From positions 31,499 through 95,498 of the forward strand of contig CAYVXV010000001.1 of assembly GCA_964455555.1 (NCBI GenBank): 64,000 nucleotides of DNA, given 5' to 3'. Shown here one piece after another: positions 4,497 to 62,034 of the stretch (position 1 is the first letter of the stretch; the number at the start of each line of letters is the position of its first letter). Under the pieces are notes generated by a model. That model was not told where the DNA came from. It did no database searches and was given only the letters and a program-made list of their open reading frames with translations. The translations under genes were made by a program, and so were the position numbers. Origin of the DNA: an uncultured Pseudomonadales bacterium. Its GTDB lineage: Bacteria > Patescibacteriota > Microgenomatia > UBA1400 > PJMF01.

Positions 4497-5084
4497 CTAT
4501 TTTTCGAGCAAATCCCTTAGCCAATTGGAAAACCGCTGCCAAATAGTGTTTACTTCCTGCTTAGTTTCCTGAAGCACAAGGTTGGCTGGTTCAGAATTTT
4601 CATTGATCCTCTTCTCTGCCCTTTCCATCACTTGATTGGTTTCTTGTTTTGCCTCCTCAAGTTTTGTGGAAATTTGATCTCTCTTGGCTTCCCTCTCTCT
4701 TTTCAACTTCAAGAACTCTTCCTCCGTCATCAGCCTTATCACTCTCCTGGTGCTAATTTGATCTTGATTGTTTGGATGAGTTATTTTGCCGTTGCGGATA
4801 ACGATCCGCTCGCCCTCACTTCCTTTCACAACATATCGTTTGTTGATGACCTCTTTGCCATTCTCAGAGCGGTATTCCCGCACCACGGTTTCACCATTTG
4901 AGGAGCTGGTAAACTCCTGTTTCACGACTATTTTGCTACTCCCAGAACCGGAAACATTGCTACTGACATTGGAACTAACGGAGTTAGTAGAAATCACGGA
5001 TATATGTGCTGCCTGAACACCGGCTCTCGCCAAAAAAAGCCCACTCAACACAAGTAAGCCTATCGTTAGGTGTTGCTTTGGCAT
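4497..5084 (-). CDS. Hypothetical secreted protein with signal peptide, Ser/Val-rich repeat and C-terminal coiled coil
   Basis: 195 aa. N-terminal signal peptide (LLVLSGLFLARAGVQAA), a short SNVSSNVS repeat, and a K/E-rich heptad-like C-terminus. No recognisable family. Confidence 0.45.
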   Translation of the reverse strand: MPKQHLTIGLLVLSGLFLARAGVQAAHISVISTNSVSSNVSSNVSGSGSSKIVVKQEFTSSSNGETVVREYRSENGKEVINKRYVVKGSEGERIVIRNGKITHPNNQDQISTRRVIRLMTEEEFLKLKREREAKRDQISTKLEEAKQETNQVMERAEKRINENSEPANLVLQETKQEVNTIWQRFSNWLRDLLEK

Positions 5085-48858: not shown

Positions 48859-48926
48859 GCAAATATTATATCATCGTGAGGAATGCGCTTGGTTTGGAGT
48901 ATGCTGGATGAAATGTGGGAAATTTG

Positions 48927-48999
48927 CAGGGCCGGAGGGATTCGAACCCCCACGAGAGGTTTTGGAGACCCCCATGCTAGCCATTAACATCACGGCCCT
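48927..48999 (-). tRNA. tRNA-Trp (anticodon CCA)
   Basis: Minus-strand read gives AGGGCCG-UG-AUGUUAAUGGCUAGCAU-G-GGGGU-CUCCAAA-ACCUC-UCGUG-GGGGG-UUCGAAU-CCCUC-CGGCCCU-g. A 7-bp acceptor pairs perfectly, T-loop TTCGAAT, anticodon loop CU-CCA-AA. CCA end not encoded. Confidence 0.85.
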
Positions 49000-49062
49000 A
49001 GGATTAATATTGTAACATGCTGCCACTAGACCTGGCTTCTTGTGTTGCGCTATTCTTAATGC

Positions 49063-50379
49063 ATGTCCAACCTCTTCGACCCCCATTTAACAAAAACTTA
49101 CCAGCAGGACAAGAAATTCCTCGAGCTTTCAAAAATTCCCATCGTCACCGTCTCTTCCAGTTATCAGGAAGACCTCAAGCGGATGCATGGCCTGCCCAAC
49201 AATGAAACTGACCGCGACGTGGTTTTTTCCCGCGCCCACTACTCGATGGCGCTGGGTGTAGCAACCTATGCCTGGAAGGAAAAAGTTGACCCCCAAAAAG
49301 CCTGGGTAGTCGACCCCACCAACTATGTTTCCAAAGATAAATGGTTTTCCATTCAATTAACAGAAATTATCGGTAAAACCATTGCCCGCAACTCTATACT
49401 GAAAACAGCCAAGGATTTTATAGACCGGTTTGCCCGAAAAAAGCTACCGATTTTGGACAGTATCACACCACCGCTGCTTTACCTGACTGAACATATTAAA
49501 AAACCTATCCTCTCTTTTCATATTGCTGCCGGAAATATCCTGGCTGGACAAGGAAAAACAGTTGTTCAGGTGGTGACTGATCCGCATGTCCGCGCTGAAT
49601 ATGTAACATATGCTGACAAAAAAAATATTAGTTTTTGTGTTTTTGATGAAGCCACCAAAGTGGATTTTCTGGAACAGGCGGCTAAACTGGATATCAAAGC
49701 CGATCCAGACCGGGTGATCGTGACCGGCCCGCCAATTGACCCAAGGATTATCGCTGCAAAAAATGAGAAAAACCCCTGGAGAAGCGGCATCCTGCGGCTT
49801 TGCATCACTACCGGAGGCCTAGGAACGAACAAGGAAGAAATTCTGAAGATGCTCAGGCAATTTCTACCTGAATTGCGCAAGCGCTCGCTGGAATACCAGC
49901 TGCTGGTCTACGCCGGCACCCAGCATGATATTGCCGATGAAGTTGAAAAACTGGCTCAGGAAAACAGGATTGCAATTGGCGGTCTTAATGATAAAAAAGC
50001 CAAGCTCAGGCTGATTTACCATCCTCAAATTGTTGATGCCAATGAAATGCTGATTAAGCATGGTTTCCCTTGGGCTCACGGTTTTATAACCAAACCATCA
50101 GGAGATATGGCTTATGACGCAGCCGCATCGGGCAGCTTCATCCTCACCATGGCAGAATGGGGTGAATGGGAGGAACGGATTCGGGTTATTTTTGAGCAGA
50201 AGAATATAGGCCGTACTGCCGACACCAACTCGATTATTTCTCAGCTGGAAGTCCTCCGCTCGGCTCAAAGAAAGTCGCAATCCTGGATTGAGCAAGCCAT
50301 GCACAATGCCCAAAAACTCGAGCCGCTCTATCTGAATGGGGCTAAAGGCATTTTAAATGCCGTTAAACAAGCCGGCTAA
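49063..50379 (+). CDS. Hypothetical protein, possible GT-B fold glycosyltransferase (MurG/MGDG-synthase-like)
   Basis: 438 aa. LRLCITTGGLGTNKEEI resembles the C-terminal-domain G-rich loop of GT28-type transferases (VTGGSxGA). Weak, overall-pattern call. Confidence 0.4.
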   Translation: MSNLFDPHLTKTYQQDKKFLELSKIPIVTVSSSYQEDLKRMHGLPNNETDRDVVFSRAHYSMALGVATYAWKEKVDPQKAWVVDPTNYVSKDKWFSIQLTEIIGKTIARNSILKTAKDFIDRFARKKLPILDSITPPLLYLTEHIKKPILSFHIAAGNILAGQGKTVVQVVTDPHVRAEYVTYADKKNISFCVFDEATKVDFLEQAAKLDIKADPDRVIVTGPPIDPRIIAAKNEKNPWRSGILRLCITTGGLGTNKEEILKMLRQFLPELRKRSLEYQLLVYAGTQHDIADEVEKLAQENRIAIGGLNDKKAKLRLIYHPQIVDANEMLIKHGFPWAHGFITKPSGDMAYDAAASGSFILTMAEWGEWEERIRVIFEQKNIGRTADTNSIISQLEVLRSAQRKSQSWIEQAMHNAQKLEPLYLNGAKGILNAVKQAG

Positions 50380-50395
50380 GCACAAAATTCAGCAG

Positions 50396-50427
50396 TAAAA
50401 ATCCCCCTTTTTCAGGGGGATTTCTGC
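50396..50427. terminator. Bidirectional rho-independent terminator between convergent genes (glycosyltransferase-like ORF and rpmG)
   Basis: AAAAATCCCCC-TTTTTCA-GGGGGATTTCT: 7-bp G/C stem flanked by an A-run and a T-run. Confidence 0.65.
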
Positions 50428-50448
50428 TTTGAATTTGCGAGACAGATA

Positions 50449-50652
50449 TTATTTCAGCTTTTTAGCCATTTTATGCTCTGAATGCTTGTGGCAAACATTA
50501 CAGTACTTGTTGAGCGGGAAAGTGCTCACGTTTTTGGTCTGCTTCATTAAGAGTTCATTGTTTTTGTTGTATTCAGTAACGTAATTAAATGAATTACAAA
50601 CAGAACATTGCAAACCAGCTATCTGTCTTGGTCCTTTTTTTGCTTTTGCCAT
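50449..50652 (-). CDS. rpmG: 50S ribosomal protein bL33
   Basis: ORF 50449..50679; probable start at the internal Met at 50652. MAKAKKGPRQIAGLQCSVCNSFNYVTEYNKNN...KYCNVCHKHSEHK has the two CxxC pairs and spacing of bL33. Confidence 0.8.
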   Translation of the reverse strand: MAKAKKGPRQIAGLQCSVCNSFNYVTEYNKNNELLMKQTKNVSTFPLNKYCNVCHKHSEHKMAKKLK

Positions 50653-50726
50653 ATATTCCTTTTTCTTTTTGTGTTTCAAAATCGCTTAATTTAAGAGATG
50701 TAGTATACCATACCAGGCAATTACTG

Positions 50727-50800
50727 AGCCATCTCGGGGATTCGAACCCCGGACCTACGGTTTACAAAACCGTCGCTCTAACCAACTGAGCTAAGATGGC
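50727..50800 (-). tRNA. tRNA-Thr (anticodon UGU)
   Basis: Minus-strand read: GCCAUCU-UA-GCUC-AGUUGGUUA-GAGC-G-ACGGU-UUUGUAA-ACCGU-AGGUC-CGGGG-UUCGAAU-CCCCG-AGAUGGC-u. Perfect acceptor and anticodon stems; loop UU-UGU-AA. Confidence 0.85.
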
Positions 50801-50968
50801 GTGCGTTTGACATTAGCTCATTGAGCACGGCTGGCGCCTTCTCCAGCCTCCTTGAGCTATCTACCCAGACTAATTATAACCTGAAAACTTCAATGACGGC
50901 AGCTCAAAGGGCTCAATTCACTAATATCTTATCGCTGCCTTAGTGAAAAATTTGCTCACTATTCTATG

Positions 50969-51051
50969 TGCCAGGTGTAGGATTCGAACCTACGAAGGCG
51001 TAAACCAGCAGATTTACAGTCTGCCCCCGTTGACCGCTTGGGTAACCTGGC
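50969..51051 (-). tRNA. tRNA-Tyr (anticodon GUA), long variable arm
   Basis: Minus-strand read: GCCAGGU...GCAGA-CUGUAAA-UCUGC-UGGUUUACGCCUUCG (long variable arm)-GUAGG-UUCGAAU-CCUAC-ACCUGGC-a. Anticodon loop CU-GUA-AA. 83 nt, consistent with bacterial type II tRNA-Tyr. Confidence 0.85.
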
Positions 51052-51111
51052 GAGTCTGCCCCAAGCAAGCTTGAGGCATGGCACAGTATAACAAATTTTC
51101 CTGAATTTGCC

Positions 51112-51186
51112 TGGAGCCCAGAGAGGGAATTGAACCCTCGACCTCTTTCTTACCAAGAAAGCGTTCCACCACTGAACTATCTGGGC
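51112..51186 (-). tRNA. tRNA-Thr (anticodon GGU), 3-prime CCA encoded
   Basis: Minus-strand read: GCCCAGA-UA-GUUC-AGUGGUG-GAAC-G-CUUUC-UUGGUAA-GAAAG-AGGUC-GAGGG-UUCAAUU-CCCUC-UCUGGGC-U-CCA. Perfect acceptor; anticodon loop UU-GGU-AA. Confidence 0.85.
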
Positions 51187-52599: not shown

Positions 52600-54189
52600 A
52601 TGAAACCTGCTCTAAAGCGTGTAGTTTTTAGCGTCCCCAATTTACTGCCTTTTGCCGGCCTATTACTAGTCATTTCCGGAGTGATTGGTATCTTTTACAC
52701 TCAGGAAGCCCTTCAGGAATCTCAAGAAATCCGGTCAAGCGCTTCCGGCGAAAGCGGCCAGGTTTTAATTGCTCCCCTCACCTCTCCAAGCACGACTATC
52801 AAAGGCTTAGTCCAAGAGCAGGTGATTTCTTTAGGAATTAACACTCAAAATCTGCCGCTTAAAGAATTTTCGGTGGTATTTAATGCCATTACTGATGTTG
52901 CAGACACGCTTGAGTTAGTGCCAAGCAACCTAGTTGGTTTTGAAGTTACCGCAGAAACACAAAAAACAGCCGACGGCTTCCTGGCTACCGCCGTTTTTAC
53001 CAGGACCAGCCAGAATTTCCTATCCAACTACAACCAAAAATTTTTGGAAATTCATTTTGAACCTGCTAAAGCCGGAACAATCGAACTTAATTTTGACCGC
53101 GAGCTTTCCGTAGCGCTTCACGCTGACAACAGCTCTGATATTCTTAAACACATTGCCGATGCTACTTTTACCATCGCCGCCAGTGAAGCTGACCCCACTT
53201 ACAAAGCCTGCAACGAAACCTGCAGCTCCAACGCCGAATGCCAATCTGGTTTCCGCTGCTTTAATACCGGCAGTGAATCGCGCTGCCGCCTGGTAACCAA
53301 CCCATCGAGCTCCACCTGCAGCTCAGAAAGCACTTTAAAATCCTGCAATCAAAGCTGCGGCGGCAGCGCTGAATGCCAAAGTGGCCTGAGCTGCATTAAC
53401 AGCATCTGCAGAAACCCGAATAATCCCGAAAGCTCCAGCTGCAGCAACCCAACTCAACAAGCAGAAACTCAAGCAGCCAGCTGCAATGAAGCCTGCACCA
53501 CCAATGCTGACTGCGCGGTAAATTTCCGCTGCTACTACAATCAATGCCGGCTGGCTACCAATCCTTCAAGTACCAGCTGCAGTGCAGATACGACTTCCAC
53601 TGTGTCTTCGCTCTACCAAAAGGAACCAGTAGAAACCGCTACACCATCTGCCCTGCCAACCTCACCGGCTCCTGAAACCAGCACAGAAAATGAAGAAACC
53701 CCAGAAGAATTTCAGCCAGAGGAGTCAGAACCAGTGACCCAACCCCAGGAACAACCTTTGGATCCGGATGAAACTTCACTTCAAGCCCTGCTGAGCGTCC
53801 TCGGCAGCTCAACTTTCCGCCTGCCCAGCACAGTCTTGGTTGCTGGAGCCATCTTGCTGCTTGTCGGCGGAGCAGTCTTTGTTGCCGCCTCCTCCAGAAA
53901 GAAACCGACCACTGTAGCTATGACAAAAACCGGCGTACCGCCTGCTCCACCTCCCAGAGAAACACCGCCTCCTTATGGGGCACCTCCTCAACCTCCGTCG
54001 CCGCAAACAGCACCTCCGCTAGCACCACCTTCGCAGTCAGCGCCTCCACAAGCAGCACCGCCGCAACCCGTACCTCCGCCTAACCAATCAGTTCCAATGG
54101 CTGAACGGTCATCTTCGATGGTTGAACGGCTCAAACAAAAAGGGATTACGCCGCCAAGCACAGGCAATCAGCAGCCAAAAGACCAATAG
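52600..54189 (+). CDS. Membrane-anchored protein with three tandem Cys-rich modules, Ser/Thr/Pro linker, C-terminal TM helix and Pro-rich tail (contains PPPY)
   Basis: 529 aa. N-terminal signal/anchor (VVFSVPNLLPFAGLLLVISGVIGIF). Three ~40-aa repeats, each C-x3-C-x5-C-x5-C-x4-6-C-x9-11-C (CNETCSSNAECQSGFRCFNTGSESRC... / CNQSCGGSAECQSGLSCINSICRN... / CNEACTTNADCAVNFRCYYNQCRL...). TM LPSTVLVAGAILLLVGGAVFVAASS followed by RKK. Tail PPAPPPRETPPPYGAPPQPPSPQTAPPLAPP... Confidence 0.6.
   Translation: MKPALKRVVFSVPNLLPFAGLLLVISGVIGIFYTQEALQESQEIRSSASGESGQVLIAPLTSPSTTIKGLVQEQVISLGINTQNLPLKEFSVVFNAITDVADTLELVPSNLVGFEVTAETQKTADGFLATAVFTRTSQNFLSNYNQKFLEIHFEPAKAGTIELNFDRELSVALHADNSSDILKHIADATFTIAASEADPTYKACNETCSSNAECQSGFRCFNTGSESRCRLVTNPSSSTCSSESTLKSCNQSCGGSAECQSGLSCINSICRNPNNPESSSCSNPTQQAETQAASCNEACTTNADCAVNFRCYYNQCRLATNPSSTSCSADTTSTVSSLYQKEPVETATPSALPTSPAPETSTENEETPEEFQPEESEPVTQPQEQPLDPDETSLQALLSVLGSSTFRLPSTVLVAGAILLLVGGAVFVAASSRKKPTTVAMTKTGVPPAPPPRETPPPYGAPPQPPSPQTAPPLAPPSQSAPPQAAPPQPVPPPNQSVPMAERSSSMVERLKQKGITPPSTGNQQPKDQ
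53206..53570 (+). repeat. Intragenic tandem repeat: three ~120-nt units encoding Cys-rich modules
   Basis: Recurring tgcagctc / gaatgccaa / agctgc words in DNA. The protein-level 6-Cys spacing is conserved across three consecutive units. Confidence 0.5.
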
Positions 54190-55192: not shown

Positions 55193-55615
55193 ATGGCAAA
55201 AAAAGTACTTCAAGTTTTAAAACTAAATTTACCGGCAGGCTCTGCCACCCCAGCGCCTCCAGTCGGCCCTATTCTTGGCCAAGCCGGAATCAACATGATG
55301 GACTTCATCAAGCAGTACAATGACCGGACCGCCGATCAGCGCGGCCAAGTCATCCCTGCTGAAATTACCGTTTATCAGGACAGGTCTTTTACTTTCGAAC
55401 TTAAGCTGCCTCCAGTTTCTGCCATGATTATGCAAACCCTTAAGCTCAAATCCGGCAGTCAAAAAACCGGCCGCGAGACTGTGGGCACCCTAACCATGGA
55501 TCAAGCCAGGGAAATTGCAGAAAAGAAACTGCCTGACCTAAACACAGAAGACGTTGAGAAAGCTTTAAACACCGTTATCGGCACAGCCGAGAGCATGGGT
55601 GTAAAAGTTGAATAA
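55193..55615 (+). CDS. rplK: 50S ribosomal protein uL11
   Basis: 140 aa. PAGSATPAPPVGPILGQAGINMMDFIKQYN... is the uL11 N-domain signature. Confidence 0.9.
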   Translation: MAKKVLQVLKLNLPAGSATPAPPVGPILGQAGINMMDFIKQYNDRTADQRGQVIPAEITVYQDRSFTFELKLPPVSAMIMQTLKLKSGSQKTGRETVGTLTMDQAREIAEKKLPDLNTEDVEKALNTVIGTAESMGVKVE

Positions 55616-55690: not shown

Positions 55691-56410
55691 ATGGGATCAA
55701 AGAAAAACGTGGACATGTCGTCCACCACAGACACTGTAAAAATTGTGGAAGCAGAAGCAACTGCTCCCGAACAGCAGGAAGAGGCTAAAAAGCCAGCTGC
55801 CCCTAAAGTAAGCCGCAGCCAAAAATACCGCTCCGTCCGTTCCAAAATCGACAAAACCAAGGAATATTCTGCTAAAGAAGCAGTTGAGCTGGTCAAAAAG
55901 CTGTCATATTCCAACTTTACCGGCACAATTACTGCTGATGCTGTTGTAAAAGAAACCGGCATTGTCGGCTCACTCAGCCTCCCCCACTCAACCGGCAAAC
56001 AACTTAAAGTTGTGATTGTAGATGACAAAGTCCTTGGACAGCTGGAAGCTGGAAATATTGATTTTGACGCATTGGTCAGTTCACCGGAGTTCATGCCTAA
56101 ATTGGCAAAATACGCCAGAACCTTAGGCCCCAAAGGCTTAATGCCTAACCCCAAAATCGGCACCCTGACCCCCAACCCGGAAGCGAAGAAAAAAGAGCTT
56201 GAAAGTGGAAAAATTTCCCTGAGAACAGACAAAAAACAACCGCTTCTCCATGTTTCTATCGGCAAAACCGATCAAGAAACCGCTGAACTGGTGGAAAACC
56301 TGGAAGCGCTAATCCGTGAGCTGGGTACAAAACTGCAAAAACTTGCAATTTCAGCAACTATGAGTCCAGGCATCAGAGTCGACATCTCCGGCTACAAGAA
56401 AAAAGCCTAA
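55691..56410 (+). CDS. rplA: 50S ribosomal protein uL1
   Basis: 239 aa. ...YSAKEAVELVKKL...FTGTITADAVVKE...GKQLKVVIV...MPNPKIGT... matches uL1 blocks. Follows rplK. Confidence 0.85.
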   Translation: MGSKKNVDMSSTTDTVKIVEAEATAPEQQEEAKKPAAPKVSRSQKYRSVRSKIDKTKEYSAKEAVELVKKLSYSNFTGTITADAVVKETGIVGSLSLPHSTGKQLKVVIVDDKVLGQLEAGNIDFDALVSSPEFMPKLAKYARTLGPKGLMPNPKIGTLTPNPEAKKKELESGKISLRTDKKQPLLHVSIGKTDQETAELVENLEALIRELGTKLQKLAISATMSPGIRVDISGYKKKA

Positions 56411-56430
56411 GCAAACTTCATGAGAGAACT

Positions 56431-56458
56431 AAAACCCCGTAGAAATGCGGGGTTTTTA
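56431..56458. terminator. Bidirectional terminator between rplA (+) and thrS (-)
   Basis: AAAACCCCG-TAGAAAT-GCGGGGTTTTT. Confidence 0.65.
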
Positions 56459-56484: not shown

Positions 56485-58269
56485 TTACTTCCGCTCCTCT
56501 ATTTCATCCTCCAACCGGTCGGCAAACTCCTCGGCATCAACAACTTCCTGCTCCCCGCTGTCGCGGCTGCGGACGGCAACTGTACCAGCTTCCTCTTCCT
56601 TGCCGCCGACTACGAGCATATAAGGCACTTTTTCATTCTGGGCATCGCGGATCTTTGCTGAGAGCCGTTCAGAGCGGTCGTCAAGCTCAACCCTAATCCC
56701 CTCTTCACGCAGAATCTCTGTAACTTTTTGGCCATACTCATTGAATTTGTCGGACACCGGCAGGACTTTTGCCTGCACTGGAGACAGCCAAGCCGGGAAC
56801 TTGCCAGCATAGTGCTCAATTAGGAAAGACATAAAACGCTCATGAACCGACAATGGCGCCCTGTGGATTACAAAAACCTCGTGGTTATGCTCGCCGGATT
56901 CATCAACGTAGCTCAGGCCAAAACGCTCCTTGGCGGCAAAGTCCAGCTGGATTGTGGACATCGTTTCCTCGCGGCCGATGGCTGACTTAAACTGAACATC
57001 TACTTTGGGCCCGTAGAAAGCTGCTTCATCCTCAGCCTCCACAAACGGCACTCCCATCTCCTCCAGCACTTCTCTCAAGACTTGCTCGGTGTAGTCCCAG
57101 TTTTCCGGTTCATTAAAATATTTGTCCGTATGTCCCGGACTCCACTTTGACAGCCGGAACCAGTAATCCTCAAGGCCAAAAATCTTGAAATAGTCCATGG
57201 TTAGCTCCATCACTGCCTTGAACTCATCCTTAACTTGGTCTTTGCGGCAGTAAATGTGGGCATCATTCATGGTCATGCTCCGGACCCGGAGCAGTCCTGC
57301 CAAGGTGCCGGACAACTCATTGCGGTAACAGGTGCCGTACTCAGCTATCCTGAGCGGAAGGTCTCGGTAGCTTTTGGGTGAATGCAGATAAATCTGATGA
57401 TGGTGCGGGCAGTTCATGGCCTTAAGATAATAAGCCGAATCATCCATTTCCATCCGCGGGTACATGCTGTCTGCATAGTAAGGCAAATGACCTGATTTGA
57501 GGAACAATTCTTCGCGAGCAATATGGGGTGTGCTCACCCTAACATAGCCTGCCGCCGCCTCTCTTTCTTTAGCCAGTTTTTCTATCTCATCCTTGATCAC
57601 TTGTCCTTTTGGCAGCCACATCACCAAGCCCTTGCCCACTGCTTCGTCAATAAAAAACAACTCCAACTCCTGGCCAATCTTGCGGTGATCCCGCTCTTTG
57701 GCTTCCTCGCGGAGCCTCAGGTGCTCTTCCAATTCTTCTTCACTAAAAAAGGCCGTGCCATAAATGCGGGTCAGCATGGTGTTCTTTTCGCTGCCGCGCC
57801 AATAAGCCCCCGCCAAAGACAACAACCTAAAGTGGTGCAGTGCCTCGGCAGGATTCTCAACATGACCGCCTCGGCAAAGGTCAACAAAACCGCCGGACTG
57901 GTAAAGCGTGATTTTCTCTCCCGCCTCGGCAAATTCATTTATTAACTCCTGTTTGTACTGATTGTTTTCATATCTGGAATCCGCCTCTTCCCTGCTGACT
58001 TCCAGCCTTTCAAAACCATGCCAGCCTTGGACCAACTCATGCATTTTGACCTCAATGGCAGGCAACTCACTGTCTGAGATTGGTTCGGCAAATTCAAAAT
58101 CATAATAGAAGCCGTCATCCGTGGCAGGGCCAATGGTTGGCTTTACCCCGGGATAAAGCTCGGTCACTGCCGCAGCCAAGAGGTGGGCGGCAGAATGCCT
58201 CAGCCGCTCCAGCCGGTCTTTTTCTTCCGGATTTTGCTGATGATGTAATTGATTTTCGTTGTCTGCCAT
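56485..58269 (-). CDS. thrS: Threonyl-tRNA synthetase lacking the N-terminal TGS (N1) domain
   Basis: ORF 56485..58296; the likely start is the second Met at 58269 (MADNENQL), which has an AAAGGA SD. Editing-domain HxxxH (RHSAAHLLAAAV), class II motifs (FRLSKW..., GTCYRNE, MNDAHIYC) and a C-terminal anticodon-binding domain. The protein begins where E. coli ThrRS residue ~62 aligns. Confidence 0.85.
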   Translation of the reverse strand: MADNENQLHHQQNPEEKDRLERLRHSAAHLLAAAVTELYPGVKPTIGPATDDGFYYDFEFAEPISDSELPAIEVKMHELVQGWHGFERLEVSREEADSRYENNQYKQELINEFAEAGEKITLYQSGGFVDLCRGGHVENPAEALHHFRLLSLAGAYWRGSEKNTMLTRIYGTAFFSEEELEEHLRLREEAKERDHRKIGQELELFFIDEAVGKGLVMWLPKGQVIKDEIEKLAKEREAAAGYVRVSTPHIAREELFLKSGHLPYYADSMYPRMEMDDSAYYLKAMNCPHHHQIYLHSPKSYRDLPLRIAEYGTCYRNELSGTLAGLLRVRSMTMNDAHIYCRKDQVKDEFKAVMELTMDYFKIFGLEDYWFRLSKWSPGHTDKYFNEPENWDYTEQVLREVLEEMGVPFVEAEDEAAFYGPKVDVQFKSAIGREETMSTIQLDFAAKERFGLSYVDESGEHNHEVFVIHRAPLSVHERFMSFLIEHYAGKFPAWLSPVQAKVLPVSDKFNEYGQKVTEILREEGIRVELDDRSERLSAKIRDAQNEKVPYMLVVGGKEEEAGTVAVRSRDSGEQEVVDAEEFADRLEDEIEERK

Positions 58270-58388
58270 AAATGTGTCCTTTCGGCTGTAATTCATTGTA
58301 ACATTGCAAAGTCTTTCGACGGGAATTGTTTTTGCCGATCCTGTTGATTTTTACCCACTTTCTCCTGCCTTTAGCAAAAAACTGCCCG

Positions 58389-58418
58389 GAAAACAAAAAG
58401 CCTCCCTGTTCAGGGAGG
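58389..58418 (-). terminator. Terminator/attenuator hairpin between the small ORF and thrS (minus strand)
   Basis: Minus-strand CCUCCCUG-AA-CAGGGAGG followed by CUUUUUGUUUU. Located ~140 nt downstream of the small ORF stop and ~95-125 nt upstream of the thrS start (exact distance depends on which thrS start is taken). Confidence 0.5.
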
Positions 58419-58560
58419 AAATCTGCAAGCCACGCAACTTCCCTCCCTAAACAGGGTTGGTAGTTGTAGTAATTTGCCTTAGGACTAGTTTCATTGCCAA
58501 GAAATTATAACACGGGAGTTGACCCAGTAATTTTTCCCAACAGAGTTTGCTTCAGATGAA

Positions 58561-58827
58561 CTACCGCTTCTTGCCAAGTTTTGCTTGAGGTTGCGAAGTA
58601 AGAATTTGCTTACCGCTGATCGCGCTGGTTGGATGGTCTACCCAAACCATGGACCGGTGAATTTTAAGTGTCTCTGCGAGGTCTTCCAACGACTCTCTGC
58701 TATAAGGTATGCTGGCTGCTTCTTCTTTCATGAATCCTTTCTGAATTCGGCGTATACTTTTTACTTTTAAGAGCAGGCTGGACGGTTTCTGCCGGCGGCG
58801 ATAACTAACCCCTGCTTTTTGCACCAT
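58561..58827 (-). CDS. Small hypothetical basic protein (88 aa) with a perfect SD
   Basis: AAAGGAGG SD 3 nt before the ATG at 58827; K/R-rich termini. No family recognised. Lies between thrS and the rplJ promoter region. Confidence 0.4.
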   Translation of the reverse strand: MVQKAGVSYRRRQKPSSLLLKVKSIRRIQKGFMKEEAASIPYSRESLEDLAETLKIHRSMVWVDHPTSAISGKQILTSQPQAKLGKKR

Positions 58828-58840
58828 AATCCTCCTTTAC

Positions 58841-58867
58841 TAAAAAACCTCCTGTTTAGAGGAGGTT
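58841..58867 (-). terminator. Terminator-like hairpin immediately 5-prime of the small ORF SD (minus strand): candidate attenuator / riboswitch expression platform
   Basis: Minus-strand AACCUCCU-CUAAAC-AGGAGGUU-UUUUAG-UAAAGGAGGAUU-AUG. Confidence 0.4.
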
Positions 58868-59061
58868 GTACTTGATACTGGTAGTGTGATGGCTACTCAA
58901 ATAAGCTACAACCCCGCTCGTTGCGAAGTTGAATGCACTTAATGGTGGCCACACACATGACTAACATTTGATAGAAATATAGCGCATGTGCAACTATTTT
59001 GCAATGAAGCACAGATATGTATATTCATTAAAAATCATGTAAATTTTTCGTATAGACACGA

Positions 59062-59089
59062 TTGCACTTTCCCCCAAGTATGCTATAAT
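59062..59089 (+). promoter_or_regulatory. Sigma70-like promoter for rplJ-rplL (TTGCAC-16 nt-TATAAT)
   Basis: Near-consensus -35 TTGCAC (59062-59067) and consensus -10 TATAAT (59084-59089), about 210 nt upstream of rplJ. This leaves room for a structured L10 leader. Confidence 0.45.
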
Positions 59090-59222
59090 CTCTCTGTTGT
59101 CCAAAGACAGCGTGCAGTCAGCCCAGGCAGACAGAAGCCACGCCGAGGATCAAAAAAGCGCCTTGCGAGCCTACCCTGCGTGTTCCGCGCTTTATCTTTA
59201 AGTCTTTGTACAACACAGTAAA

Positions 59223-59250
59223 CAGCTGTGTTTTTTCTTTTCATCACAGC
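59223..59250 (+). terminator. Attenuator-type terminator hairpin in the rplJ leader (ACACAG-loop-CTGTGT followed by TTTTTTCTTTT)
   Basis: 6-bp perfect stem with a 7-nt loop and a U-run, about 50 nt upstream of the rplJ start codon. Consistent with known L10(L12)4 leader attenuation. Confidence 0.45.
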
Positions 59251-59297
59251 TTCAAACACTAAGTAAAACAAGTTTATTTATAGGCAAGGAAATCATT

Positions 59298-59813
59298 ATG
59301 CCAAGCAAAAAAAACGAGCAGCAAGTAGAGATCATTAAAGAGAAGTTGGCCGGCGCCAAATCAGCTACCATTGTTGATTATTCCGGCACCACCGTGAACG
59401 ACCAAGTTAAGCTCCGCAGTGAGCTTAAAAAAGCCGGTGGAGAGATGTTTGTGACCAAGAACACCTTAATCGACTTAGCAGTCGGAAAAGGCAAGCTCAG
59501 CGAGTCGCTGACAGGCATGAATGCCCTAATCCTCTCATATGAAGATGCAGTTGCGGCGGTTAAAGCTCTTTTTGACTTCCAAAAGGAAACTGAGAAGCTT
59601 TCAATCAAGCAGGGCTGGATGGACAGCGAGGTCCTTTCCGCCGAGCAAGTTGAGGCCTTGAGCAAACTGCCGTCCAAGACTGAGCTTATCGGCATGTTGA
59701 TGTCGCGCCTTCAAGGCCCGGCATATGGCTTAGTCAACGTCCTTCAGGGTTCACAGCGCAATTTAGTCTATGCCCTCCAGGCTATTGCTGACAAAAAAGG
59801 ATCTGAAGCCTAA
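59298..59813 (+). CDS. rplJ: 50S ribosomal protein uL10
   Basis: 171 aa. ...[47 protein letters not shown] is typical uL10. Followed by rplL. Confidence 0.85.
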
Positions 59814-59876: not shown

Positions 59877-60281
59877 ATGGCAGACGAAGCAACAAAATTA
59901 TCTGGCAAAGTCCAGAAACTCGTCGACGCAGTCAAGGAACTTTCCCTTATGGAAGTTTCTGAGCTAGTCAAAGCCCTTGAAGAGGAATTCGGCGTCAGTG
60001 CCGCAGCCCCTATGATGGCCGCACCAGCAGCAGCCGCAGGCGAAGCAGCCGCAGCCGCTGAGGAAAAAGATGAGTTTGACGTCATCCTCAAAGATGCCGG
60101 CTCAAACAAAATCGGTGCTATCAAGGCTGTCCGCCAGCTCAAACCTGAGCTTGGTCTAGGTGAAGCCAAAACCTTCGTTGAGTCCACCCCCAAGACTGTT
60201 CTTGAAGGTGCCAAGAAGGAAGACGCAGAAGCCGCCAAGAAAACCCTCGAAGAGGCAGGCGCTGTTGTTGAGCTTAAATAA
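59877..60281 (+). CDS. rplL: 50S ribosomal protein bL12 (L7/L12)
   Basis: 134 aa. N-terminal dimerisation helix, Ala/Pro hinge ([23 protein letters not shown]), C-terminal domain ...[11 protein letters not shown]...[11 protein letters not shown]...VELK. Confidence 0.9.
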
Positions 60282-60825: not shown

Positions 60826-61140
60826 ATGTCTGACACAACTGCCATGACATCACCGGTAACCAACCAGTCGCTTGCTGACCAGCAGCGAGCAGCTTTAGCA
60901 GAAGACCAAAAGAGGACTGGACGGGCTGATGATGCTAACAGACTCGATATCAACAACCTTCCTGACCTGCTGACCGTCAGGGAAGTAGCTGACCTTCTCA
61001 GAGTCTCACCCCTGACCATCAAACGCTGGGGCAAACGAGGCAAGCTGCCTGCCATCAGGATCAATTCCCGAGGAGACAGGCGCTACAAGAAGGAATCCGT
61101 ACTCTGGCTGCTGGGCATTACGCCTGGGGATGACGAGTAA
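60826..61140 (+). CDS. Excisionase/MerR-type helix-turn-helix DNA-binding protein (HTH_17-like)
   Basis: 104 aa. LTVREVADLLRVSPLTIKRWGKRGKLPAIRINSRGDRRYKKESVLWL fits the excisionase-family HTH pattern (L-T-x-x-E-x-A-x-x-L-x-V-S-x-x-T-x-x-R-W...G-x-x-R-Y). Confidence 0.55.
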   Translation: MSDTTAMTSPVTNQSLADQQRAALAEDQKRTGRADDANRLDINNLPDLLTVREVADLLRVSPLTIKRWGKRGKLPAIRINSRGDRRYKKESVLWLLGITPGDDE

Positions 61141-61200: not shown

Positions 61201-62034
61201 TCAGAGTTTAAATAATTCTTTTAATGTCAGCCAGCTAAACTTGACTAATTTTAACTGCCTTCTCCACCGCCAGGGTTCCTGCAGCAAACGGTACAGCCAT
61301 TCCAACCCTAACCGCCTGACAAATGCCGGCGCCCGGTTTAGTTTGCCAAAGAGCATATCAAAAGCGCCGCCTACGGCCATAACCACTAAAACTCCTTCTT
61401 TCTCGAGAAATGGTTTATTTTGGCAGATCCAATATTCCTGGTGCGGCGCGCCAAATGCAGCAAAAACAACCGCCGGCTTCAGCTGGCTGATTAAGCTATG
61501 AACTGCTTGCTGCTCGGCTTCTGCCGGCTGAGAAACTTGGCTAAAGCCAGGGGTCCAAACTATAGCTGCGTCCTTTCCGGCGGAAATCGGCAATTTTAGC
61601 TCGAACACCTCAATTTCTAGGTTGGGAAAGAGCCGGCGGCTTGCCGGCTGCAGTTTTTCATAGCCCCGGCCGCCCAAAATTAAGACGCTGCGATCATGCT
61701 GGTTGGCAATTTTCAAAATTTCAGCAGCTAAATCAACGCCAGCGATCCTCTTTTTTAGCGGTTTTGAGCCTTTTAAAGCGAGCAAACGGGAGGCAAAAAC
61801 CAGTCCAACACCGTCGGGAGCCAAAATATCGGCAGAACCCAAACAGGAAGCAAAAGTTTGAAGCTCTGAAGCGAGCGCAATTTGTTCAGGGTTGGGGGTA
61901 AAAATGGTCAGCGGAGTCCTTTTTTCAGAGGTGGAAGCTGATATTTGTTTCTCTATAATTTTTAGCAGAGCATTGCGTTGACTGCCAAAAATGCCTAGAT
62001 TGAATATTTTAGCCGATTTATAGGTATTTTTCAT
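61201..62034 (-). CDS. WecB/TagA/CpsF-family glycosyltransferase (N-acetylmannosaminyl/ManNAcA transferase family)
   Basis: 277 aa. ILAPDGVGLVFASRLL contains the family PDG(V/I)G motif. Length and layout are typical of TagA-like enzymes. Confidence 0.75.
   Translation of the reverse strand: MKNTYKSAKIFNLGIFGSQRNALLKIIEKQISASTSEKRTPLTIFTPNPEQIALASELQTFASCLGSADILAPDGVGLVFASRLLALKGSKPLKKRIAGVDLAAEILKIANQHDRSVLILGGRGYEKLQPASRRLFPNLEIEVFELKLPISAGKDAAIVWTPGFSQVSQPAEAEQQAVHSLISQLKPAVVFAAFGAPHQEYWICQNKPFLEKEGVLVVMAVGGAFDMLFGKLNRAPAFVRRLGLEWLYRLLQEPWRWRRQLKLVKFSWLTLKELFKL

Follow-up and report, generated by a model that had tools for sequence, protein, structure and literature searches.

Candidate Phyla Radiation (CPR) bacteria, or Patescibacteria, represent a substantial part of the diversity of bacteria, possess very small genomes in which few regulators can be recognized, and are mostly not available in pure culture; their gene regulation is almost unknown. 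A stretch of 64,000 nucleotides (nt) from contig CAYVXV010000001.1, referred to below as the window, raises this question at a single locus. Its host is a Microgenomates-like CPR bacterium with a small genome (GC content, 46%). In it, thrS, the gene for threonyl-tRNA synthetase (ThrRS), lies on the minus strand between the ribosomal protein genes rplA and rplJ and is preceded by a small open reading frame (ORF) and two terminator-like hairpins. What controls this gene? A preliminary description of the locus had found the leader of the small ORF to look like an attenuator or a riboswitch expression platform, possibly sensing tRNA or an amino acid on behalf of thrS. The promoter, hairpins, Shine-Dalgarno (SD) sequence, and long-range helix that it quoted were all found where it had placed them, by inspection of the sequence, consensus scans, and folding. 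Our analysis makes it likely that the thrS operon is controlled by two tandem, near-leaderless, ribosome-mediated attenuators acting in series, with a conserved small protein encoded between them.

Related loci, designated by L numbers, were obtained in two ways. Scans of contigs with ThrRS peptides returned one close relative, L001, and distant Acidimicrobiia, the latter being used as negative controls. The other relatives were reached via ThrRS protein matches and their contigs. Three comparison sets were formed: nine distinct CPR loci for the leader ORF next to thrS, eight syntenic loci for the upstream leader and the small protein, and six Acidimicrobiia thrS loci as controls.

The leader next to thrS, referred to as attenuator 2, contains a thrL-like ORF of 15 codons. 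After its ATG at position 58494, the ORF reads AAA CTA GTC CTA AGG CAA ATT ACT ACA ACT ACC AAC CCT GTT and then TAG, and it thus includes four consecutive Thr codons (ACT ACA ACT ACC, positions 58470 to 58459). No SD sequence precedes the ATG. Since the start codon is situated only 9 nt after a perfect extended -10 box (P2), the mRNA would be near-leaderless. A box of the TGnTAnnnT type was found 6 to 9 nt upstream of the leader ATG in eight of the nine loci.

A short Thr-run ORF was present upstream of thrS in all nine distinct CPR loci and in none of the six Acidimicrobiia controls. The runs read TTTT, TTTT, T.TTTT, TTT, TTTTT, TTTTTT, TTT, TTITT, and TTT. They comprise 3 to 6 consecutive codons (TTITT in L018) and end a few codons before the stop. 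Outside the run, both the leader peptides and the stems were dissimilar between lineages, and all four Thr codons were in use. A scan of the 64-kb window for other intergenic short ORFs with a run of one codon and a terminator returned none besides thrL. The Thr-run leader was also present in L001, where thrS resides in the canonical thrS-infC-rpmI-rplT context, which indicates that the element travels with thrS and not with the ribosomal protein neighborhood.

Downstream of thrL, the terminator scan identified an intrinsic terminator (terminator 2). The preliminary description had noted this second hairpin and its similarity to the first; the hairpin is there, but it belongs to a leader peptide attenuator, both short ORFs having been overlooked. 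Equivalents of terminator 2 were found in 9/9 loci, each consisting of a GC-rich hairpin and at least five U residues, with the 5' arm beginning 25 to 32 nt past the leader stop codon. At its 3' end, including the stop codon, thrL extends into the 5' arm of a longer alternative hairpin with 18 contiguous pairs and an apical stem. This extended hairpin is the minimum free energy (MFE) structure of the thrL leader (-40.1 kcal/mol; z = -4.6), and none of 200 dinucleotide shuffles was as stable. Its upper part, the antiterminator AGGGAGGGAA:UUUCCUCCCU, and the terminator CCUCCCUG:CAGGGAGG compete for the same CCUCCCU strand.

The dependence of these folds on ribosome position was modeled by masking a footprint that covered the A-site codon and a further 9, 11, or 13 nt and was moved codon by codon. 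With the A site on Thr codons 2 to 4 of the window leader, only the antiterminator formed and the 3' arm of the terminator was left unpaired. Terminator 2 formed from one or two codons after the Thr run through the stop codon, and with the ribosome at the stop it formed in all nine loci. A free terminator 3' arm was confined to A sites within the Thr run in seven of the nine loci (almost confined in the window and marginal in L001). The Thr-run leader thus appears to combine the elements of a ribosome-mediated attenuator, namely, an ORF with control codons, a terminator, and a position-dependent antiterminator, the last of these in silico.

Transcription from the extended -10 promoter would accordingly yield an almost leaderless mRNA for the 15-codon Thr-run peptide. 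When Thr-tRNA is plentiful, the ribosome would reach the UAG codon and cover AGGGAGGGAA, and CCUCCCUG would pair with CAGGGAGG; the terminator 2 hairpin and its U tract would then halt RNA polymerase some 120 nt short of thrS. If little tRNA-Thr is charged, translation would stall on the Thr codons, AGGGAGGGAA would pair with UUUCCUCCCU, no terminator would form, and thrS would be transcribed. The proposal that thrS is under the control of an amino acid or tRNA-charging sensor is therefore retained, but the Thr sensor is not the leader of about 150 nt in front of the small ORF, the Thr-codon ORF being associated with the second hairpin.

That upstream leader, referred to as attenuator 1, has an architecture of its own. 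A consensus scan placed a promoter-like site (P1) directly in front of an upstream ORF of 24 codons (uORF1), which would again be near-leaderless. An ORF of 22 to 30 codons, together with a terminator and a promoter-like site, was found at this position in 8/8 syntenic loci; in the relatives, TTGCAA or TTGATT is combined with a TATAnn box 7 to 11 nt upstream of the uORF1 ATG. Thr-Ile is encoded at uORF1 codons 8 and 9 in six of the eight loci, with synonymous variation among ACC, ACT, and ACA and between ATT and ATC. The region contained 11 terminator-like sites, compared with 4.1 ± 2.0 expected. Terminator 1 was conserved in all eight loci, and RNAalifold recovered it with compensatory pairs.

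Four segments make up the switch. In the naked RNA, segment 1 (CAACUUCGC) pairs with segment 2 (GCGGGGUUG), and segment 3 (UACAACCUC) pairs with segment 4, which is the AGGAGGUU arm of terminator 1. The long-range helix GUGUGUGG/CCAUCACAC quoted earlier belongs to the MFE fold of this leader (z = -4.6; 0/200 dinucleotide shuffles as stable). A modeled ribosome around uORF1 codons 9 to 13 shifted the fold to pairing 2:3, and a ribosome at the stop codon, just past segment 2, brought the terminator back. The 1:2/2:3/3:4 architecture was found in 8/8 loci. Complementarity between the 3' part of uORF1 and the 5' arm of the terminator (2:3) was likewise present in each of them, with energies of -14.7 to -24.3 kcal/mol, and in six of the eight no shuffle out of 300 gave as stable a duplex. 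The helix occurs in compensatory versions, including GGGGUUGUA/UACAACCUC, GAGGUCGUG/CACGACCUC, and GGGGUUUUG/CAAAACCCC. When hand-extracted 9-bp segments from the eight loci were compared, 93% of the cells were paired and five of the nine pairs had changed on both sides; this covariation score was reached by 0/500 shuffles, and sliding the register lowered pairing to about 40%. RNAalifold applied to a MAFFT alignment of the leaders found the terminator only, because segment 2 was one column out of register.

These features argue for an attenuator-type platform, the part of the preliminary proposal for this leader that stands. A ribosome stalled at about codons 9 to 13, past Thr-Ile, would melt hairpin 1:2; the freed GGGGUUGUA would pair with UACAACCUC, which is the 5' arm of the CCUCCU/AGGAGG terminator, and transcription would continue. 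A ribosome at the uORF1 stop would cover segment 2, and terminator 1 would form. Read-through would result in expression of the conserved small protein of about 56 amino acids (aa) and, because no terminator intervenes, would also feed attenuator 2 and thrS. In L014 and L016, the AGGAGG of the terminator 3' arm itself is the SD sequence of an extended small ORF, suggesting that the switch may also gate translation there; the window and L009 have a second SD sequence, AAAGGAGG. The uORF1 stall window encodes Thr-Ile-(Lys/Arg) with one to three Ile codons, and one to three Gln (CAA) codons in seven of the eight loci, so that Ile, Thr, and Gln would be the candidate amino acids sensed by attenuator 1.

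Stalling at uORF1 could also have a different cause. The erm, cat, and tnaC leaders are of the arrest type and respond to signals other than amino acid supply. Attenuator 1 might be such a nascent-peptide arrest device, with Thr-Ile-(Lys/Arg) in the E, P, and A sites of the stalled ribosome and the same terminator/antiterminator switch as the output; the signal could then be a small molecule, an antibiotic, or stress on translation in general. Retention of Thr-Ile in 6/8 uORFs despite synonymous codon changes indicates that amino acids or tRNAs, and not the RNA sequence, have been selected. The lack of a run of any single codon in uORF1 and the modeled antitermination window, which begins exactly at the Thr-Ile codons, would also fit an arrest peptide. 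On the other hand, L013 has no Thr-Ile, carries Gln-Ile-Ile in its stall window, and yet keeps the switch, and the remainder of the uORF1 peptide is poorly conserved; we know of no arrest motif that can be recognized in it. We consider arrest unlikely on balance.

The small ORF that attenuator 1 would control turned out not to be an orphan. A first search with the 88-aa ORF returned the same genome only, a result that was corrected by tblastn and profile searches. In each of the eight syntenic loci, tblastn detected a homologue situated between terminator 1 and thrL; the annotations of L009 and L018 have no gene here, and other annotations extend the gene spuriously at its N terminus. Some of these extensions in database entries merely read through the terminator, "RGFF" being the translation of AGGAGGUUUUUU. 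The conserved core of about 56 aa begins at an internal Met33 (ATG 58731) with an AAAGGA SD sequence upstream, and this is where most members start; the N-terminal 32 codons of the 88-codon ORF are poorly conserved. The profile search yielded 32 database member proteins, and an exhaustive hidden Markov model (HMM) search of 1.84 billion representatives yielded 60 clusters at 50% identity, all of them stand-alone proteins of 48 to 125 aa except for one marginal match to a 413-aa repetitive protein (E = 2.9e-4). Members share the motif PYS-K-L--LA--LK-HR---W-DP-TN-I--K, with PYS, L, L, L, W, and P near-invariant. No Pfam, NCBIfam, or PDB sequence relative was found. We regard the 88-aa ORF as representing a genuine, lineage-restricted small-protein family with no known domain, as judged from these searches. 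Relative to L009, strain L010 lacks one base at each of two sites in the 3' part of the small gene (about L010 positions 4640 to 4690), so that the reading frame changes downstream of the WLD motif; this may reflect noise in the assembly or indicate that the C-terminal tail is dispensable.

No terminator was found between the small gene and thrL in the window, and in L017 the small-gene stop overlaps the thrL ATG (TGATG). The small gene and thrS therefore probably form one operon with an internal promoter. What the protein would do there can be framed only tentatively. It might be a stall-induced factor, made only when a ribosome pauses on uORF1 as an arrest peptide and acting on translation or on ThrRS, for example, by docking in place of the lost N1 domain or by regulating charging or editing; the locus would then constitute a CPR-specific translation-stress circuit without a described counterpart. 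We give this scenario a slim chance.

An alternative to two attenuators would be two ordinary terminators ending separate units, one a small RNA of about 125 nt and the other the small-protein mRNA, with the Thr-run ORF and uORF1 as untranslated coincidences and thrS transcribed from the -10-like box at 58303 to 58295 only. Each hairpin is indeed a canonical intrinsic terminator located 3' of a promoter-like site. The TGTTACAAT motif of the window also occurs in L009, and a TAnAAT-type hexamer is present in the interval between terminator 2 and thrS in 8/9 loci. Attenuated leader transcripts can moreover act in trans as small RNAs, an example being rnTrpL (PMC6614838). Coincidence is nevertheless hard to reconcile with an in-frame run of Thr codons, in a short ORF ending 25 to 32 nt before a terminator, in 9/9 lineages with otherwise unrelated peptides and specifically before the gene for ThrRS. 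It is at the Thr codons that the antiterminated fold arises, the upstream antiterminator covaries, and L001 has a Thr leader without any detected upstream small-protein gene to terminate. Independent units are quite improbable on this evidence.

The small ORF had further been suspected of being a split-off regulatory or N-terminal module of ThrRS. The thrS product is, by its domain complement and structure alignment, a bacterial ThrRS: Pfam assigned it tRNA_SAD (N2 editing), the class II core tRNA-synt_2b, and HGTP_anticodon domains and found no TGS domain. In the alignments, residue 23 of the protein corresponds to residue 62 of Escherichia coli ThrRS (1qf6; E = 4.2e-136) and to residue 64 of Staphylococcus aureus ThrRS (1nyq; E = 4.9e-182), the N1/TGS domain being absent, in agreement with the start near E. 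coli residue 62 given in the preliminary description. The start codon is most likely the second ATG at 58269 rather than 58296, as an AAAGGA SD sequence lies upstream of it and the resulting 594-aa form matches database protein P0002 at 100%. Since the same three-domain TGS-less architecture was shared by all 120 best homologues (64 to 100% identical; about 580 to 600 aa), whose names include Woese-, Pace-, Levy-, Roizman-, and Dojkabacteria, a TGS-less enzyme is normal for this part of the CPR.

A detached TGS/N1 domain, or a substitute docking on the truncated enzyme, could be suspected from the position of the small gene, which adjoins the TGS-less thrS in the same orientation in 8/8 syntenic loci, and from the length of its product, about 56 aa being similar to the size of a TGS domain. 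Yet none of the 32 members matched TGS (PF02824) at E ≤ 1 or any other Pfam or NCBIfam family, and no PDB sequence matched. Two AlphaFold runs predicted one helix followed by a beta-hairpin rather than a beta-grasp fold, at low confidence (predicted local distance difference test [pLDDT] score of about 61), and Foldseek against the PDB returned nothing below E = 1 with this model. No fusion to a synthetase occurs among the 60 family clusters, the TGS-less ThrRS of L001 has no detected small gene beside it, and in L020 to L022 no small gene is called next to thrS. Homology to TGS is thereby largely ruled out by profiles, fold, and the absence of fusions, and a detached or substitute domain is very improbable, although a docking partnership would be compatible with these results.

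The leaders are highly structured, and thrS is T-box regulated in Firmicutes and autoregulated via a tRNA-like operator in E. coli. It is nevertheless hardly credible that RNA sensing of another kind operates here, be it by a T-box, by a different riboswitch, or by an operator to which ThrRS binds: ORFs with codon-level conservation and alternative hairpins account fully for the structure, no T-box sequence is present, and, apart from tRNAs, no Rfam family scored above threshold either in the window or among the 11 related loci. At gathering thresholds, the whole window gave four tRNAs only and the 11 related loci tRNAs only, with Thr_leader (RF00506) and T-box (RF00230) below threshold in both; from 58250 to 59350 at E ≤ 10, noise alone was recovered, for example, snoR41 and mir-4659, the latter merely reflecting the long hairpin. 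The search for T-boxes, ribosomal leaders, or riboswitches proposed for the upstream leader was thus negative. No Thr leader was found in the more distant CPR lineages Dojkabacteria, Levybacteria, and Roizmanbacteria. In L020 (Candidatus Dojkabacteria, CP129475.1), positions 2788 to 2985 upstream of a TGS-less thrS contain a T-box-like string, AAUUAGGUGGGACCGUCG, followed by a terminator and without a Thr leader. Its Rfam T-box score is 15.6 bits (E = 0.2), a hint, and not a finding, that the sensing system differs between CPR lineages.

Tandem attenuation, the reading we prefer, has several points against it. In L017 and L018, stalling on the Thr codons led to the extended hairpin with the terminator 3' arm paired elsewhere and not clearly free, and in L001 the masked folds gave a marginal antiterminated state only. 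A crude duplex-energy test of antiterminator 2, with roughly defined regions, was significant in 3/9 loci; codon-by-codon masking is more informative for this element. MFE folding ignores cotranscriptional kinetics, and the promoters and start sites are consensus matches only. As the segments were hand-extracted, the covariation count for antiterminator 1 is a fitted test. The signal of attenuator 1 is not evident, because uORF1 has no run of one codon. The AAAGGAGG/ATG 58827 start may be lineage specific, given the poor conservation of the first 32 codons. Finally, the -10-like box at 58303 to 58295 is a possible proximal promoter from which part of thrS transcription may bypass both attenuators; TGTTACAAT may in that case provide unattenuated basal expression of thrS.

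The proposed mechanism belongs to the same class as the trp, thr, his, and pheST attenuators. In E. coli, the pheST synthetase operon is controlled by ribosome-mediated attenuation through the Phe-codon-rich pheM leader peptide. This is the nearest functional analogue: both systems have a leader ORF rich in cognate codons of the downstream synthetase, mutually exclusive antiterminator and terminator hairpins, and a logic by which low levels of charged tRNA lead to more synthetase. The CPR system differs in its amino acid and gene (Thr and thrS), in an SD-less leader ORF that starts 6 to 9 nt after a -10 box, in a compact three-segment switch whose unbound RNA is one long hairpin, in the absence of sequence similarity, and in its CPR/Patescibacteria host. 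The E. coli thrL leader (Rfam Thr_leader, RF00506) likewise has a run of Thr codons followed by an intrinsic terminator, as well as Ile codons, which here occur in the upstream uORF1. However, it regulates the biosynthetic thrABC genes and not thrS, the window peptide has a pure run of four Thr codons, and the Rfam model found no match here.

The nearest published thrS case comes from Streptomyces lividans, in which leaderless leader peptides precede leuS, trpS, alaS, and thrS and a thrL-thrS pair was proposed (PMC8079986). Both are leaderless short ORFs upstream of the synthetase gene with the same proposed logic. The Streptomyces thrL has two Thr codons only and no clear U-rich terminator (PMC8079986), whereas the CPR leaders have 3 to 6 Thr codons, a canonical terminator, and a modeled antiterminator, and a further attenuator and the small-protein gene come before the CPR thrL. 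Compared with the thrS T-box of Bacillus and other Firmicutes and with the ThrRS operator of E. coli, the purpose is the same, namely, to adjust the expression of thrS to the charging of tRNA-Thr or to the amount of ThrRS; there, the sensor is uncharged tRNA or ThrRS bound to the RNA, and neither signature was present here. The CPR leaders would thus add a further example of thrS switching between sensing systems (T-box, protein operator, and leader peptide), a kind of switching also described for Bacillus hisS paralogues with upstream His leader peptides (PMC2965389).

In our full-text literature searches, whose coverage was incomplete so that the result is absence of evidence only, no leader peptide attenuation was described in CPR/Patescibacteria. 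The mechanism is a known one, apparently without a published description for this phylum, and we regard the case as solid but mechanistically unsurprising. On the in silico basis presented here, one CPR clade would use classical transcription-translation coupling to tune ThrRS to the charging of tRNA-Thr, with a pheST-like logic that relies on near-leaderless leader ORFs lacking an SD sequence and has persisted despite extensive turnover of the sequences. The locus offers a concrete cis-regulatory element that can be tested in metatranscriptomic and term-seq data. It also provides an annotation rule for two short ORFs and a gene of about 56 codons that are currently missed or miscalled, and it brings to light a conserved small-protein family tightly linked to thrS. 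The features of the locus are compiled in Table 1.

Table 1. Genes and predicted regulatory elements of the thrS locus, in window coordinates
Feature	Position	Strand	Remarks
secE, nusG		+	5' of rplK
rplK	55193-55615	+	
rplA	55691-56410	+	
thrS	56485-58269	-	TGS-less threonyl-tRNA synthetase, 594 aa; ORF open to upstream ATG 58296
-10-like box TGTTACAAT	58295-58303	-	Between terminator 2 and thrS; consensus match only
Intrinsic terminator 2	58390-58418	-	Terminator scan; stem CCUCCCUG-AA-CAGGGAGG (58418-58401), then CUUUUUGUUUU; in DNA letters, CCTCCCTG-AA-CAGGGAGG plus T-run
Alternative extended hairpin	58404-58456	-	Upper part AGGGAGGGAA:UUUCCUCCCU, the antiterminator holding the terminator 5' arm
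thrL-like leader ORF	58447-58494	-	15 codons, peptide MKLVLRQITTTTNPV; stop TAG 58449-58447
Extended -10 box P2, TGTTATAAT	58504-58512	-	9 nt 5' of leader ATG; read from sequence
Small-protein gene, 88-codon ORF	58561-58827	-	
SD AAAGGAGG for long form	58831-58838	-	3 nt 5' of ATG 58827; read from sequence
Intrinsic terminator 1	58842-58867	-	Terminator scan; AACCUCCU-CUAAAC-AGGAGGUU plus U tract, CCUCCU/AGGAGG type; in DNA letters, AACCTCCT-CTAAAC-AGGAGGTT plus T-run (58867-58846)
Segment 3, UACAACCUC	58862-58870	-	Antiterminator 1 3' strand; overlaps terminator 5' arm
uORF1	58893-58967	-	24 codons, peptide MLVMCVATIKCIQLRNERGCSLFE; conserved Thr-Ile codons 8-9 (58946-58941)
Antiterminator 1 5' strand, GGGGUUGUA	58907-58915	-	Segment 2, extended
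Hairpin of segments 1 and 2	58907-58931	-	
Segment 2, GCGGGGUUG	58909-58917	-	
Segment 1, CAACUUCGC	58923-58931	-	
Promoter-like site P1, TTGCAA-17-TATATT	58976-59004	-	Consensus scan; 8 nt 5' of uORF1 ATG, near-leaderless
rplJ	59298-59813	+	
rplL	59877-60281	+	
Leader peptides in other CPR loci			MKQSLMIATTTTMLLNGEVVL, MMKFVMAATATTTTIPG, MCKLVLCILVSTTTPA, MSQKLQTTTTTVSL, MNCKLTTTTTTSSA, MKNRLNREYGRIELPTTTSSV, MICNRQTTITTSR, MNLFFRSYSNSTTTPV

The antisense position of thrS, correctly described before, is not peculiar to the window genome. An antisense thrS between nusG-rplK-rplA and rplJ-rplL was also found in seven other lineages (L009 to L012, L013, L014, L016, L018, and L019), with ThrRS 71 to 81% identical, and in L017 the synteny is visible on the rplA side only. 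The canonical thrS-infC-rpmI-rplT(-pheST) order is kept in the more distant L001 (ThrRS 65% identical), L021, and L022, and infC, rpmI, and rplT are absent from the 64-kb window. By this gene order, the insertion is a lineage trait shared across the clade. Since E. coli transcribes rplKA and rplJL as two separate units, an insertion at the rplA/rplJ boundary need not break an operon.

The rplJ/thrS and thrS/rplA junctions are insertion hot spots in the relatives L009 to L019. They contain toxin-antitoxin pairs (PIN/RHH and MazE/PIN) in L014 and L016, an insertion sequence element with HTH_Tnp_1 and rve domains in L010, five unknown genes in L013, and a Hydrolase_2 gene in L018. In the window, a hairpin, AAAACCCCG-CATTTCTA-CGGGGTTTT, is located at 56430 to 56455 between the convergent ends of thrS and rplA, with A/T runs on both sides; it is probably a bidirectional terminator common to the two genes.

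On the plus strand, rplJ has a leader of its own (59062 to 59297) with an extended -10 box, TGCTATAAT (59081 to 59089), and a hairpin with a T-run, AACACAGTAAACAGCTGTGTTTTTT (59212 to 59232), about 65 nt upstream of the rplJ ATG. A block from 59073 to 59148 has conserved counterparts in L009 and, at 79% identity, in L014. The arrangement resembles a leader of the L10(L12)4 type, acting by autoregulation or attenuation; the Rfam L10_leader model gave no match to it. Downstream, rplL is not followed by rpoB/rpoC. A MerR/HTH_17-like small gene comes next (60826 to 61140, placed by synteny with L009), and after it a WecG-type glycosyltransferase gene on the minus strand (61201 to 62034). This break in rplKAJL-rpoBC synteny is common to the window, L009, and L016.

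Two further features lie upstream of rplK. A minus-strand tRNA cluster at 48926 to 51186 encodes tRNA-Thr(GGU), tRNA-Tyr(GUA), tRNA-Thr(UGU), and tRNA-Trp(CCA); under wobble rules, the ACU/ACC and ACA codons of the thrL run would be read by these two Thr tRNAs. A plus-strand ORF of 529 aa (52600 to 54189) begins with an N-terminal hydrophobic segment, continues with repeated Cys-rich modules (CNxxCxxxxxCxxGxxC...), and, past another hydrophobic segment, ends in a long C-terminal tail rich in Pro and Gln; its product is probably a surface protein.

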